Part shown: in pieces, positions 21,001 to 27,000 of the stretch | Layout: each line of letters starts with the position of its first letter | Numbering within the stretch: the first letter of the stretch is position 1 | From: a virus | UHGV virus genome: UHGV-2203451 | Strand: one strand, 5' to 3' | Length of the DNA: 37,884 nt | Made by a program: the position numbers

Positions 21001-24000
21001 CAGTCAGCCAGCGTTAGCGCAGTTAAGCCTTTAACAGCCATTGTCATTTCCTCTCTTATTTGCCATAGAGCACTTCGGCCGCACTACGCTGGCCTTCATT
21101 ACCACCGGTGACCATGCCATCTTCAGACATCGCCTTTCCGATTTTCACGAACGTTTTGACCAGATCAGGGTGATTACCCAGCCCGGTGGTGTTCAGATAT
21201 TCTTTGAGTTCAGGTGTCCCGAACTGGTCAAGCGCACGCTGTGCGGCGCTAAGGTTAGAAATCAACTTGTCGCCACCGATTTCTTTGTCGGCTTTTACAT
21301 CCGCAGCCCACTGCTCGGTTGTTTTCTGCCAGGCTTCTGCCTGGCGCTGCTGAACACCTGCCAGAATCTTCGGATAAGCATCAACCAGCTTTTGCGCTTG
21401 CTCGTTGGTCAGGTTTAGTTCTCGCGCCACCGGCTCGAATTCCTTCAACGCTTCTGTATCCAGCTCTACGCCTTCGGCAGCCTGAAACTCGTACTTCTCA
21501 GGCGCACCCTCTGGTTTATCGCCGTCCTTTTTTTCATCCTGCTTATCGTTTTCAGGCTTTTTGTCATCAGCAGGTTTATCGCCATCAGCAACAGGTTGTG
21601 GCTTATCACCTTCCGGTTGTGATGGATCACCAACTGGAGCAGGGTTATCACCTGCAGGCGCTGACGGTTCTGACGCAGCCGGAGCTGCTCCACCATCGAC
21701 TGGTTGCTCATTGCAAAGACGGCGATACAGCAAACGCTCAAATAAATTCATGATCACTCCTGTTCACTGGCCTCTTTGGCCATCTTCAAATACTGTTCAG
21801 GGCAATGCGCCATAACGCGCTGAAACAGTTCCAGCGCCAGATTGCGTTGCCCCTCATTAAATGCCATTGCCATAGCGTCCATCGGTGAGATAGCGGAAAA
21901 CACACGGCCTTTCTCCAGCACCGACCAGACAACGCGACGCCCCTGTTCACTGCTCATGACAAAGCGAATGTCATCAATTTCACGCTGTGCCATGTCACGT
22001 TGCTTACGGGCGTTTTCTTCTTTCAGTTGATCATCTTCGTAATCTGTCATTGTGATTACCCACCCTGACCACTAACTGCATTCGCCATAGCTGACAAAAC
22101 ACTCGGATCCGAAGTTTTAGCTTCGCTTAGCGTCTTGGCGCCCTGTGCCGCCGCCATTCCCATCGCCATCATTTGTTGCTGCTGTTGCTGCTGTGCCCGT
22201 TGCTGGCGAGCCTGCTCAACCTGTTCCTGCGGAACAATGACGGTTGGAGACACTCCGGACATATCAGCGAATGCATCGATCGCCTGATCAACATTGAGTT
22301 TGTCGAGAGCTTCTGGTTTCGCTTGCGCAAGTTGACCAATGAAGTTGACCGTAGACGCCAGACTGGACAGGCCGATAGACTTCTGCGCCTGAGCCATGAC
22401 GGAAATGTATTCGACCTTCAGGGGCATACCTTCCATCGCGTCAGGCGGTGGCGGCAGCATGTTTTTACGCACCATCATCGAGAAAGCGCGGTCAATGAGA
22501 GGATTAAGACATTCGTCGTTCAGACGCTCCAGAACCGGCCCCAACATCAGAAGTTTTTCTTCTTTCATTTCGATCACCGCTTCAACAGGCATCGAGCGGG
22601 TATTGATGTTCTGCAACATCATGAACAGATCGACAAAGTAGGCGCTGTTAATGATTTGACGAGTGTCCTGAATGTCTGCCACCAAATCTGCTGTACTGGG
22701 GTTAACCAGATAAGCAGGCCTGAAGCCATCCTGACCAGTAATCTGATCGATATACGTGATGTCGCCAGGAAGAAGGGAGGCGCGCTGATTCTTGAGGGAA
22801 GTCGGAGCAACCATCGGCGGATTGGTGGCTTTATCAATCAACTGAGACTTGCGCTTCTGGAGAAGCTGCAATGCCTTAACAGGTCCAAGCGCCAGCATAC
22901 CCGGGCATGATGATCCATAAACATCTTCGCCGTTAACTTCCCAGCGCGGAGCCATAATTGGAAACTCATCGAATCCGGACTCACGCAACAACTTGTCGTT
23001 ATCGCCACCAACCTCGTAATAAACCGATTTGAATGGCTTGTTCTTGCTATCCAGCTTCGATGTATCGCGGTCAATGTTCGGGTAAACCGAATGCATCACT
23101 TCAATCCACTTCTCGTAGGTGCCGCTTTCCCACATGCTTTTTACGGATTCGCTGACGTTATTTAGCCCGAACTCCTGAACAAGCTGACGAACAGTCATAG
23201 AGAACTTGCGAAAACAGGTGTCCACACTGCCACGAGGTGAGTTAGCTAGGTAGTAACTGCCTATCGGGAATGGCATTGTGCGAATGATGTCCTCGTCATC
23301 CTCCAGCACTGCCATTGCACCAGTGCTGTATGTGCCGAGGCTTCCGTATAACTGCGGCAGAGACTGATAGAGATTCGACTTATTGAACATATCGTTCATG
23401 CGGTTCTGCACCGCCTCAAGCCACAACTTAACAGGGCCATAATCCATCATTTCAGGATCTGGCGTAGCCAGGCGAAACCACGGACGCGCGGGGCTTGTGA
23501 TGCCTGACATCATGCCGCTGGCGAGAGTGCGCGCAGCCATAGTCCCGGTCGAATCAATAATGCGTGTATTGCGTCGATCGTTACGGTTGACCTCAGAAGT
23601 CAGAAAGCGGGAACCACGTGGGTTGATGTAATCACTCAACTCGCGCCAGTGCGGCTCGAACGACTGACGCTCGCTTTCAAGTTGTGCGAACTGTTTGTTC
23701 AATCGCTCTTTAGTTGTTTCCGCCATTTCAATGACTCCGGTTACTGACCAAGCAGCGTTTTACCGCTGGTCTTAGCGGTTGATGTGTCGCCCTGAGAACC
23801 GGTAAGCAGCGTAGAACTACGACCAGCAGCAGCGCGACGGCGACGAGTTTCTTCGTCGCGGGCATCAACAACGGCGGCATCCTGCTCCTGTGGTGCTGCC
23901 TGAACTTCTGGTGTTGCAGGCACTGATGGTGAGCTACCCATGCACATATCAATTACTCCGTACGCAATTAAATTATTACCAATTTAACCACATATGATTT

Positions 24001-27000
24001 ATTTATCGTAGATAGTTGACATTTAACGCGCGAATTATTACCTTTCAGGTAACTAAAGAGTTCATTCCGGTTACTAACCTGACTGGCCTGTCGTTAAATT
24101 GAACAGGTGGAGTGAGCTTTTATTTTGAGCAGTACGGCGTATGGCACATGCGACGATAGCGGTCTGGATACGTTTAAGGGGCACCCTCCCTTGCTCGGGC
24201 AAACGAACCAGGTAGCCGGAATGTGCAAGTCGAGCGGTTTTATTCCGCGCACGGGGATTCACCATCCCGGCGATTCGGTGTGACGCCTCGGAAGAGACGA
24301 GGGTACAACGATGAGAGCATTTATGGAGCCGCGACAAAGTGTGGTGCCTTAACAGGCTAAGTGCTCTCAGCGTTGTGGCATTAGCTCAGTTGGACAGAGC
24401 AACCGCCTTCTAAGCGGTTGGTCGCAGGTTCGAATCCTGCATGCCACGCCAGAATCACGCCTAAGGACCGTGATGCCAGAAGTTCCAGGTGCTTGGCGGT
24501 GATGGTTTCCCTTGAAGGACTATCACCGCCCTTTTTACAGCAGGACGCCATTGCGATGACTTCATGCTGTAAACCCGTACAGCCACGGAAGGCATAACTC
24601 ATTGCTTCCAGTTCGCCCGGTTCGCCGGGCATTTTTTTAAGGTGAGATCATGAAAACAATTGATATGTTGGCTAAGTATCTAAATGAATGGCCATTAAAA
24701 TATTCTCGTATCGTTCAGGCTGAAGACTGCGTTTTTTATGGCGTTTTTGCTGGTAATGAAATGCATTACGAAGTAATTCAGAGTGAGGGACTGACCGGGT
24801 TAACTCTTAGCGAAGACCATGGTACTAGCGTTACGTTCCATGACTGGATAACAGCACAACGTTCTGAAATGGAAAAAGGCGATGTGTTTGATATTTCTCG
24901 CTCTGTTTGCGCTAAAGCAAAAAGTGATAATGATTACATGAGCGAACACTTATACAACATGAAGCTACAGTGCCTTGCCGAGGTGCTTGGTAAAAAAGCT
25001 ATTGTCGATAAACAAGGCGCCATTAGCGAAGCAAAGGCAATAAATGCTGCATTTGATGAAATTATTTTCTAGCTCTGTGACATGTCACAAACAGCCAGCC
25101 TATGAGCTGGCTTTGTTTTATCCTCACCAGAGGATATCAACGACATTATCCCCACCAGCGGATTAAGCATAGGGATCGTAATCTGTGATGGCCTTGCCTT
25201 GCTGGTTCTGCTGACCGGGAATTCGCAGACGCTTCGACACAGGGAACGCAAACGTCAGCAGTAGCGCATCGCCTTTACCAGGAGAACGCCCAAGTCGCTC
25301 TTTGATATCTTCCTTCGGTTCGATAACGATTTTACCGTCCACTCGAACTTTGTACTCTGCTGCCGACAGGTCGTCCGCTGTTTCCTGGTCATCCAGCATG
25401 CCACCGAGCCTCAGCCATGTCTTGCATGAGTTGAACATCTCCCCACGCTTGTTGAGCATCTGCGGGTCAGTAGACGCGCCACCGAACGGAACAAGTTGCC
25501 ATGTACGACCCCAGCCGTCACCGATTGACTTCAAACCGGTTCCGTAACCGAAGTCGATGAACACCGCGTCAGCCTGATACTGGTCTTCAAAGTCAGCGAT
25601 ACGCTTCGCCATAATCAGATCGTCGGTAGTCTTGTTGCCAGTCCACAGCACCTTACTGTGTAGCCCCTGCCGCAGGTATATCACAGCGTCATCAACGCCG
25701 GAGTATGCCGGGTCAACGCCGATTATCACCGGAGCATGTGCAACCTGCGCAGCGGTTACCACCCGTTTCATTGCCTCGTCAGTAAGACCGGTAGGGATAA
25801 ACTGCAATTCAGATGCATCAGGGAATATGCCACGCACACGGATTTTAACGAAGTCGCTGTCTTCCCCGTAGTCATCAACCCATTTCTGCAACTGCTGTTT
25901 GTTAGTGCCTTCCACCGTCCGGCTGTCAATCTGCGCAGTTTTCCAGCGGTGTTTATATTTGCGGAAACATTCGCGAAAACGCCCGGTGTTACGTGTAGGG
26001 TTTCCGAACGCCACCCAAATAATCTCAGTGTCTTCGTCCGTAAGCGCACCCTCGGCAACTTCCCACACCAGATCCGCAATGTTCGACGCTTCATCAAACA
26101 CCACGATGATGCGTTTGCGCTCGTTGTGTAGTCCGGCGAATGCCTCAGTGTTGTGCTCAGACCAGGGTATTGCGTCAGCCCGCCACCGCTTGTCGTGCCC
26201 AGGGTCATTGCTGTACATCGCGGTAGCGGTACAGGTAAACCAGTCTTTCGTGATAGCAAGGTTCGACCACTTGATAATTTCCGGCCAGGTCTTCGTTCGT
26301 AGCTGGTTGTCGGTGTTGGCGGTCACCACGACCTTACAATCCTCGCAAGTGGACATGCCCCAGTTGATGAGCATTGAGATGAATGCGGATTTACCAATAC
26401 CGTGACCAGAAGCACGTGCCAGCATAAGCGGCTGATAACGCGTCTCTGGATTCTGCAGGTGATCACGTATCTCTCGGAACGCATCGGCCTGCCACTGACG
26501 TGGACCGGTAGCATGTGCCAGTTCAGTCCCCTCTTCCCCCCAAGGGAACGCATAGAGGGCATAGCCAAGCGGATCGTGAGTGAACCCTGCAATATCTTCG
26601 ATTAACTGCTCTTCAGGAGATAACGCTGCATCTGTCACTGATTACCATCCTGACGTTCTTTGAGTCGCTTCCTGGCTGCCGCTATGCGATCAGCAATTGT
26701 CACATTCACATTAACATCCAGTCGTTCTTTGAATGCGTTGACGTCGACGTGCTTACCAATCAGTTCGAGGTTCTTCACCTTGTCAGGCCATTTAATTTTT
26801 TTGAGGATTGTCTCTATCGAATCCTCGTTCATGTTCATGATGGTCGATGACAGATCAAAGCCGCTAAGCGTAGTGCGCCAGATTTTCGGCCACTCGCGGA
26901 TTGGCTTAAGGCTCCCATCGTCGTTGAGGATATCAATCACGTCCATCTGGTCGATCTCCACCAGGCGCATGAGAACGTAATCAGCACTGACGCGCATTCG

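Follow-up and report, generated by a model that had tools for sequence, protein, structure and literature searches.

A putative pseudoknotted RNA fused to a tRNA gene in a Uetakevirus, with relatives in lambdoid and P1-type phages

In the formation of the MALAT1/mascRNA 3' end, and in bacterial tRNA-linked small RNAs (sRNAs) such as 3'ETS-leuZ, two stable RNAs are parted at a processing site that is provided by a tRNA, or by a module resembling one, within a non-coding transcript. The C4 antisense RNA of phages P1 and P7 is reportedly excised from a longer early transcript by RNase P via a tRNA-like feature. The present analysis concerns an island between the portal gene and terL in the UHGV virus genome UHGV-2203451, a stretch of 37,884 nucleotides (nt) that is called the window throughout. 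By nucleotide comparison with phage records, the window is a Uetakevirus (epsilon15/phiV10-like) phage. On its + strand, the island carries a putative structured RNA of about 240 nt (24135-24375) that runs directly into a tRNA-Arg(UCU) gene (24375-24451). C4 (Rfam RF01695) is a precedent for such an arrangement, and C4 itself is found in the window at 5848-5933 and in the cdtI and UTI89 phages that carry the element. C4 differs from the island RNA in length (87 nt), in fold and in locus (immI), and the C4 model does not match the element. The MALAT1/mascRNA and 3'ETS-leuZ systems are eukaryotic or chromosomal, their RNAs are unrelated to the island RNA, and for the island the processing step is one that we infer.

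The put RNA of phage HK022 is likewise a structured phage RNA that heads a repressor-controlled early operon in N-less lambdoid phages and is followed by terminators. It is about 70 nt long, with two stem-loops and a triplex, and occurs as a putL/putR pair, whereas the element is about 240 nt long, contains a pseudoknot and is present as a single copy. The tRNA-Arg(UCU) of the island is one of the phage-borne rare-codon tRNAs, which include ileZ-argN-argO of Stx phages. A tRNA-Arg is already annotated in phiv142-3, O157 typing phages 9/10 and SPC32H, and the tRNA itself is no different. It is an ordinary, known kind of feature; its fusion to a structured RNA is new.

The only described RNA that touches the element comes from Escherichia coli K1. 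In strain RS218, a 193-nt RNA named sRNA-17 was mapped by rapid amplification of cDNA ends (RACE) and Northern blot to an intergenic region of a prophage, upstream of yfdP; according to its authors it has no Rfam homolog (Sun et al. 2020, PMC7719688). It is part of the same module, here in a lambdoid prophage, and has the same orientation. The junction at which it begins corresponds to the tRNA 5' end of the window. Its sequence is not shared with the window, where the tRNA-Arg and a trailer replace the sRNA-17 body, and the two are alike only in terminator base and tail. The paper treats the core as promoter DNA, not as an RNA, a family or a structure.

Fold and covariation of the structured RNA

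The initial annotation of the island had described about 300 bp of GC-rich non-coding sequence upstream of the tRNA gene. The GC content is indeed high (0.55-0.565 over 24100-24500, against 0.38 at 23900-24099 and 0.41-0.42 over the downstream open reading frame (ORF)), and the stretch is non-coding. It does not appear to be a spacer, however. Sequence comparison indicates that 24135-24375 encodes a conserved structured RNA, because 45 base pairs with compensatory changes and invariant 18-mers are retained across unrelated phage families. No other component of the island is as strongly conserved.

The fold was derived on the + strand from an alignment of 23 sequences, RNAalifold and pair counts. 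Helix P1 (24135-24155) is followed by P2 (24160-24166 with 24209-24218), which encloses a variable hairpin. The invariant single strand GGAAUGUGCAAG lies inside 24212-24229, and a variable hairpin is located at about 24233-24253. The loop CACC (24260-24263) of helix P6 (24254-24268) forms a pseudoknot with GGUG (24277-24280). Helix P7 (24286-24302) is closed by the loop GAAGAGA, and P8 (24306-24321 with 24360-24375) encloses a variable apical domain.

For the covariation analysis, 23 representatives with a mutual identity of at most about 92% were aligned with MAFFT. RNAalifold predicted 43 pairs for this set, 15 of them with compensatory changes. The pseudoknot was spotted by eye in the alignment and was added to this fold before a recount, which gave 45 pairs in 8 helices with 96.5% of cells paired. 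In controls in which the 3' partners were slid by 1-3 columns, 30-44% of cells were paired. Changes on both sides were seen at 17 pairs (3-6 in the slid controls), the covariation score was 0.253 (at most 0.08 in the controls), and none of 500 shuffles matched the observed values. A compensatory change from G-C to A-U divides the set 11 to 11 in P1, and a change from C-G to U-A divides it 15 to 8 in P2. Covarying pairs make up three of four in P6 and four of five in P7 and number five in P8, while the pseudoknot changes from CACC/GGUG to AACC/GGUU in three sequences. Many G-U pairs are compatible with the + strand alone, for example UG in 23 sequences at 89-152 and in 21 at 66-76. The RNA strand was decided by these G-U pairs, by gene context and by the RACE primers, single-sequence z-scores being uninformative. 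An all-against-all covariation scan for further tertiary pairs was too noisy, owing to shared ancestry among the sequences.

A protein-coding reading of the stretch was also considered. The small ORFs at 24125-24283, 24223-24360 and 24074-24337 are interrupted by stops in most of the 23 homologues, whose length differences are not multiples of three, and this reading was rejected.

Searches for a description of the structured RNA covered databases and the literature. Rfam 15 (4227 models) gave nothing over 24135-24374 at E<=10 in the window and no core match at gathering score in 12 other homologous loci, and the UTI89 copy had none at E<=10. Literature searches with sequence strings of the element and for put-like RNAs, structured phage RNAs and the P1 ban operon returned nothing relevant. 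No description was found in Rfam 15, the full-text literature or GenBank/RefSeq annotation, and the sole overlap is sRNA-17, which corresponds to the neighbouring segment. The RNA family is probably truly undescribed.

The tRNA slot and the distribution of the element

ARAGORN calls a tRNA-Arg(tct) with an encoded CCA at 24375-24451 on the + strand, and the Rfam tRNA model RF00005 scores 73.3 bits on the same positions (gathering score 29, E=2e-14). The tRNA-Arg(UCU) of the initial annotation is thus recognised both by ARAGORN and by a covariance model. We take this tRNA to be argU-like. The 3' strand of P8 (…CAGCGUUG) runs into the tRNA, and its last base is G+1 of the tRNA (24375).

Copies of the element that lack a tRNA carry a different domain in this slot, reading GUGGUGA-AU-GCGC-AGGCUGAU-GCGC … GCCGG-AGAUCAGCA-CCGGC-CACCAC. 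This domain has the spacing of a cloverleaf: an acceptor-like helix of 7 bp is followed, after a linker of 2 nt, by a hairpin with a 4-bp stem and an 8-nt loop, and a long insert then leads to a 5-bp hairpin that abuts the 3' strand. Compensatory changes are found in its first hairpin (GCGC to GCAC/GUGC or GCCC/GGGC) and in its second (GCCGG/CCGGC to GCUGG/CCAGC or GUCGG/CCGAC). In lambdoid phages, such a pseudo-tRNA and a terminator fill the tRNA slot.

tRNA-like features are also seen elsewhere in some copies. The apical domain of P8 contains T-arm-like hairpins (GGUUCAAUUCC, GUUCGAUUC) in SPN1S (locus L013), in 1720a-02/WGPS2 (L010/L011) and in contig L109, whose apical insert looks like a nearly complete tRNA-like sequence. 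The unit of P8 and pseudo-tRNA is tandemly repeated in Klebsiella phage SopranoGao (L014 2187-2460) and in contig L109 (3776-4040), and IMG/VR contig L032 (3987-4971) has two core copies in tandem. Apart from this L032 duplication, no second divergent (putR-like) copy was found in the fetched loci.

The pseudo-tRNA form is the one for which a transcript has been mapped. When the primers of Sun et al. (PMC7719688) were placed on the near-identical UTI89 prophage (L165), sRNA-17 corresponded to L165 3237-3430 on the + strand, that is, to the pseudo-tRNA domain plus the terminator t1, directly 3' of the core. The RNA begins where core and pseudo-tRNA meet, 3-4 nt ahead of the acceptor-like helix, and ends in the U-run of t1. 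The "promoter fragment" of the same paper (L165 2988-3237) coincides exactly with the structured core. Since the authors' quantitative reverse-transcription PCR (qRT-PCR) amplicon starts at the first bases of the core, the core is co-transcribed in K1. Wild-type reads behind the terminators were 0.5 for yfdP and 0 for yfdR (PMC7719688), and the near silence of these genes indicates that the terminators work despite the core. For the K1 homologue, the published work (PMC7719688) thus shows transcription, with a 5' end that falls on the junction and a 3' end that falls on t1.

A sensitive blastn search with 24060-24374 matched 92 phage records at 70-83% identity. Besides Uetakeviruses, these include P1, P7, D6, SJ46 and RCS47; phage cdtI, Stx2c-converting phages, Stx2a_1447, WGPS2, 1720a-02, 2H10 and mEp390; and Klebsiella and Stenotrophomonas phages. 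The invariant 18-mer GTAGCCGGAATGTGCAAG (24212-24229) is present in at least 120 IMG/VR contigs. With the 251-bp leader (24130-24380) as query, copies were found in 1840 of 5426 complete E. coli genomes, about a third, at 1920 chromosomal and 554 plasmid places; copies of at least 95% identity occur in 474 complete E. coli genome records. A scan of 596 Gb of genome contigs for the 18-mer gave 27 matches against about 17 expected by chance, and those in Azonexus and in metagenome-assembled genomes have no or merely residual similarity outside the 18-mer. Since such odd-taxon matches are compatible with chance, the range that the matches support comprises Enterobacterales phages and prophages and Stenotrophomonas phages.

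The element has escaped annotation in these records. In every listed row of the E. coli matches the feature column reads "none", save for the adjacent tRNA-Arg under the match, and in the phage records that were opened the element is unannotated or overlaid by a dubious "hypothetical protein". PhiV10p04 (L001 2182-2433) is a coding sequence antisense to the tRNA and t1, and the tRNA is missing from the phiV10 record. The phiv142-3 record (L002 2182-2250) places the tRNA on the wrong strand. Tyrion gp54 (L009 1711-1872), BUCT709 WCS67766 (L008 2323-2613) and mEp390 gp36 (L015 2011-2253) are "hypothetical proteins" over the RNA element. These annotations are probably wrong, and PhiV10p04, Tyrion gp54, WCS67766 and mEp390 gp36 become doubtful as proteins.

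Wherever its setting was examined, the element belongs to a transcript that is early and under repressor control, and is read in the sense direction. In phage cdtI the order is the cI stop, the cI terminator, a strong TTGACA-16-CATAAT promoter under a palindrome (PL/OL), the element, terminators and the first early-left ORF. The same layout is found in UTI89, WGPS2, 1720a-02, mEp390, Stenotrophomonas phage BUCT709 and several enterobacterial prophages. In P1, the element is part of the C1-controlled ban operon, 14 nt after trnI (tRNA-Ile) and about 100 nt ahead of the ban start codon. A strong hairpin with a T-run follows within 500 nt in 82 of 90 distinct copies, and often there are two. The RNA part appears to be the conserved payload of the island, because P1 copies keep P1-P7 and phiv142-3 keeps the RNA, the tRNA, t1 and a second terminator t2 without the ORF.

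Promoter, terminators and cargo of the island

Every feature that the initial annotation had listed for the island is present in the window at the coordinates given there. The region is 99.1% identical to Escherichia phage HEMP4 over its full length and 92-98% identical to PAS61, phiV10, ZX5, TL-2011b and O157 typing phages 9 and 10, all Uetakeviruses. The same layout between terL and the gp3-like ORF is seen in the phiV10, phiv142-3, epsilon15 and PAS61 records. The island is neither an assembly artefact nor a recent insertion, because it is present across the genus; an artefact is excluded also by the leader copies in E. coli genomes, and the description of the island as inserted is not borne out. 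Its arrangement is ancestral to the genus Uetakevirus. The flanking genes are all on the minus strand: the portal gene (22056-23726; PF12236, E=1e-187) and the 68-aa gp3-like ORF (23741-23947) on one side, and terL (25163-26638) and terS (26635-27309) on the other.

A candidate sigma-70-type promoter read from the sequence (24016-24044, + strand) has the perfect TTGACA that had been noticed before as its -35 element (24016-24021), a 17-nt spacer and TACCTT as its -10 element (24039-24044). A strict promoter scan of the window did not call this + strand promoter, because its -10 element fits at three of six positions only. Its design is the same as that of the main early promoter at 34131, which is operator-flanked. 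The operator-like palindrome of the initial annotation, TTACCTTTCAGGTAA (24038-24052, unstranded), is likewise present and overlaps the -10/+1 region. Its motif, TTACC-N5-GGTAA, has 14 copies in the window where 0.85 would be expected; they lie at 4247, 5572, 5697, 6743, 24038, 27231, 27249, 30992, 31054, 33000, 33337, 33385, 34097 and 34159. Copies lie in pairs on both sides of the helix-turn-helix repressor gene 33455-34039 (Pfam HTH_3), on the main early promoter at 34131 and around the isrK/C4/Bro-N antirepressor region. In the epsilon15 record, the site homologous to 24038-24052 is annotated as protein_bind "repressor". The palindrome is, by this evidence from sequence and annotation, the putative operator of the phage repressor, and the dispersed operators of the window resemble the multi-operator C1 network of P1. 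As the operator covers -10/+1 of the TTGACA promoter, the island unit should be silent in the lysogen and switched on at derepression. The unit looks like an early lytic transcript rather than a moron expressed in the lysogen.

The immunity region of the window contains known RNAs as well. An isrK-like RNA (76.7 bits) and the C4 antisense RNA (77.7 bits) lie at 5748-5933, directly upstream of the Bro-N antirepressor ORF 5981-6676. This arrangement is the immI module of the P1/P7/P22 type, found here in a podovirus. The isrK and C4 pair recurs in two other carriers of the structured RNA, phage cdtI and the UTI89 prophage.

Ahead of the conserved RNA, the transcript would contain a genus-specific 5' stretch (24053-24134, +), where the epsilon15 record annotates an RNase III site. 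The tRNA is followed by a conserved trailer hairpin, AAUCACGCCUAAGGACCGUGAU (24453-24474, +). Salmonella and Klebsiella relatives and IMG/VR copies have this hairpin as well, behind their tRNA or pseudo-tRNA. The intrinsic terminator t1 (24495-24538, +; scan hairpin 24495-24530) has the form GGCGGUG...CACCGCC plus a U-run. Its stem base and tail (GGCGG…CCGCC-YUUUUUACA) are conserved across Uetakevirus, lambdoid and Stenotrophomonas copies, and its homologue is the RACE-mapped 3' end of sRNA-17. The next segment (24539-24638, +) ends in t2 (24615-24638; scan hairpin 24615-24630), which abuts the Shine-Dalgarno sequence of the ORF. A third terminator, t3 (25093-25119, +; scan hairpin 25093-25112), follows the ORF tail-to-tail with terL, where the phiV10 record annotates a terL terminator. 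The two consecutive terminators of the initial annotation are thereby confirmed and joined by a third. Three terminator-like hairpins with T-runs stand against 1.9 +/- 1.5 in shuffles, a count that alone is not significant; the terminator hairpins of the island are, however, shared with related phages.

Uetakeviruses including epsilon15 conserve the segment from t1 to t2 (24539-24638), for which Rfam returned only sub-threshold matches, such as a RyhB-like one (E=1.4). Read-through of t1 might yield a small RNA from this segment, as is described for the dual terminators of rrn operons (PMC8144298).

The 140-aa ORF of unknown function with its own Shine-Dalgarno sequence that had been noted before is present at 24650-25072 (+), with AAGGTGAG at 24639-24646, 4 nt before the ATG. 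Homology and structure prediction gave it no function. It falls into phrog_4846 ("unknown function", E=2e-88), has no match in Pfam or PADLOC, and has 80 homologues, of which those named are all "hypothetical protein" of Enterobacteriaceae (E. coli, Citrobacter, Salmonella, Enterobacter, Klebsiella). These homologues are apparently conserved at the protein level. Its AlphaFold (AF2) model is confident (mean predicted local distance difference test score 81), with no fold match in the PDB and with matches in BFVD to uncharacterised viral proteins only.

The GC content of the ORF is 0.41 against about 0.53 in the flanks, and its slot is variable among relatives. A Sf6 gp66-like gene is found there in phiV10 and epsilon15, a DUF2829 protein in a Klebsiella relative, a 64-aa ORF in SPN1S and three small ORFs in Tyrion. 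In phiv142-3 the slot holds no ORF, and the RNA, tRNA, t1 and t2 are retained. The cargo part of Tyrion (L009 2708-2772) also has an Rfam int-alpA match (44 bits against a gathering score of 35.8). The ORF appears to be a low-GC, exchangeable cargo cassette, which is a routine kind of feature. A promoter scan found no promoter-like site between t1 and the ORF. The only consensus-like promoter upstream is the operator-overlapped one, with two terminators between it and the ORF. Its reading as a moron agrees with the atypical GC content, with t3 and with the variable presence in relatives, and less well with a sole consensus-like promoter that lies under the repressor operator.

The tRNA may serve translation of the phage. 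Its genes contain 85 AGA codons (7.8 per 1000) and 63 AGG codons (5.8 per 1000), together 148 of 646 Arg codons, and these are concentrated in tail and tailspike genes. This usage is several-fold above that of E. coli K-12. Because of this difference, rare-codon supplementation by the tRNA is plausible, and the proposal that the island boosts AGA decoding is a reasonable one.

Proposed mechanism and competing explanations

The island may be an early stable-RNA operon under repressor control, with the tRNA or pseudo-tRNA as the punctuation mark at which a new non-coding RNA is released; on balance, this reading is narrowly the probable one. Once the repressor leaves the operator at 24038-24052, the sigma-70 promoter at 24016-24044 would fire, and about 85 nt on the transcript would fold into the pseudoknotted RNA of about 240 nt (24135-24375). 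The 3' strand of P8 would pass directly into the tRNA-Arg(UCU) (24375-24451), and transcription would largely end at t1 (24495-24538). The tRNA would act as a built-in punctuation mark, which is replaced by a degenerate pseudo-tRNA in lambdoid phages and for which P1 has a tRNA-Ile directly upstream. Processing of the tRNA 5' end, of the RNase P type, would then separate the structured RNA from the tRNA. The released tRNA could supplement AGA/AGG decoding of the tail genes, and the structured RNA, once released, would be a discrete non-coding RNA at the onset of the lytic cycle that most likely binds a factor conserved in host or phage. As an optional passenger beyond t1 and t2, the cargo ORF would be reached by terminator read-through or from its own promoter. 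That RNase P is the processing enzyme, that the core RNA is stable and that it acts in trans are points that we infer. It is conceivable, though rather doubtful, that the core represents a new class of large functional RNA with a tRNA-shaped handle, which would be produced within seconds of prophage derepression and would engage a universal host machine (RNA polymerase, RNase P/tRNA processing or translation) to redirect the cell or to gate early phage transcription. It might, for example, modify the polymerase as a second kind of RNA, structurally unrelated to the first, or be the means by which a phage governs the maturation of its own tRNA.

Several observations weigh against the proposal of a punctuated stable-RNA operon. 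ARAGORN is blank on the pseudo-tRNA in L006-L011, L014 and L015, and Rfam finds no tRNA at E<=10 on the UTI89 copy; since neither the tRNA model nor ARAGORN recognises the domain, the label "pseudo-tRNA" describes its architecture alone. The acceptor-like helix shows no covariation because it is invariant. In K1, RNase P would be expected to cut 3-4 nt downstream of the 5' end found by RACE, and this end could be an internal transcription start, as PMC7719688 assumed. P1-type copies retain P1-P7 only and have no P8, pseudo-tRNA or terminator. Epsilon15 (L003 3030-3225) has lost the tRNA, t1 and all of the RNA except helix P1 and one half of P2; the unit is thus dispensable for laboratory growth. 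The folding energy of the single sequence is unremarkable (z = -0.84 on the + strand, -1.96 on the - strand), and the pairing of GUCG (24229-24232) with the first tRNA bases is backed by one-sided changes only.

The main rival is antitermination of the put type. The core would act in cis as a processive antiterminator that modifies RNA polymerase, as in HK022, with read-through of t1 and t2 into the cargo ORF in the window and, in lambdoid phages, into the N-less early-left operon from yfdP-yfdQ-yfdR onward. The lambdoid RNA does occupy the nutL/putL position, after PL/OL and before any ORF, and is followed by one or two strong terminators and the early-left genes; neither an N-like first gene nor a consensus promoter was found between this RNA and the early-left genes. 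Terminators downstream of most copies (82 of 90) fit this explanation, as do the strongly conserved single-stranded bases, which from Stenotrophomonas to E. coli phages would suit binding to a host machine such as RNA polymerase, and the finding that put RNA is active without a tether to the transcript (PMC9378689). The element has no similarity to put, however: when the HK022 PL/PR regions were searched by nhmmer with a profile of the core, the result was noise (E=0.87). In E. coli K1 the RNA ending at t1 is visible on a Northern blot while yfdP behind it has 0.5 reads (PMC7719688). The only target of antitermination in phiv142-3 would be antisense terL, and in the window transcription beyond t3 would run antisense into terL and terS. 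With a single copy per phage, no putR-like partner and P1 copies that lack a terminator before ban, this explanation is unlikely. A sensor of the riboswitch or T-box kind is less probable still. Such an RNA would bind a metabolite, a tRNA or a protein, and alternative pairings of GUUGUGG would decide between folding and processing of the tRNA or pseudo-tRNA and termination. Mutually exclusive helices are indeed available to GUUG-UGGY, whose partners can be the upstream CAAC (P8) and GYCR or, alternatively, the 3' strand (CACCACAAC) of the tRNA or pseudo-tRNA. A pseudoknot, highly conserved unpaired bases and a 5' leader position are in keeping with a sensor, as is the P1 copy about 100 nt before the ban start codon. 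Yet the terminator lies about 120-150 nt past the core with no overlap, unlike in known riboswitches, no riboswitch or T-box model of Rfam matches, and the heterogeneous gene context yields no ligand candidate.

Two further explanations deny the RNA a role of its own. The conserved segment might act as DNA, either as a promoter or regulatory region, such as the ArcA-bound sRNA-17 promoter of Sun et al. (2020), or as another protein site. Binding of phosphorylated ArcA to exactly this fragment is reported from an electrophoretic mobility shift assay (EMSA) in the paper that places the sRNA-17 promoter there (PMC7719688), and the mapped 5' end lies at the 3' edge of the fragment. The EMSA was carried out at 20-80 uM protein (PMC7719688), though, and the forward qRT-PCR primer of the same authors at the far 5' end of the fragment implies that the fragment is transcribed. 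As the fragment contains no consensus-like promoter and bears compensatory changes and strand-specific G-U pairs, which are signatures of RNA, the DNA explanation seems hardly probable. Least probable is the explanation that the stretch is a mere untranslated leader or spacer of the tRNA, with function confined to the tRNA and the moron protein. The intact tRNA and the frequent rare Arg codons would agree with it, and so would the good Shine-Dalgarno sequence of the ORF, homologues that are apparently conserved at the protein level and the growth of epsilon15 without the RNA. A spacer, however, would not be expected to keep 45 compensated base pairs and invariant 18-mers across unrelated phage families, or to turn up in lambdoid phages that have no tRNA there and in phiv142-3, which has no ORF. 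This explanation is already contradicted by the covariation and by the distribution of the element.

If the proposal of an early stable-RNA operon is correct, what has been taken for the promoter of the virulence-linked sRNA-17 would be an RNA, and sRNA-17 itself would arise by processing from the 3' part of a larger precursor. As phiV10, P1 and UTI89 are genetically tractable, the system would be easy to test. A pseudoknotted RNA of about 240 nt would then head the first induction transcript in about a third of sequenced E. coli genomes, and also in P1, in cdt- and Stx2-converting phages and in Klebsiella and Stenotrophomonas phages. Such an RNA may regulate the transition from lysogeny to lysis or the conflict between phage and host in pathogens.

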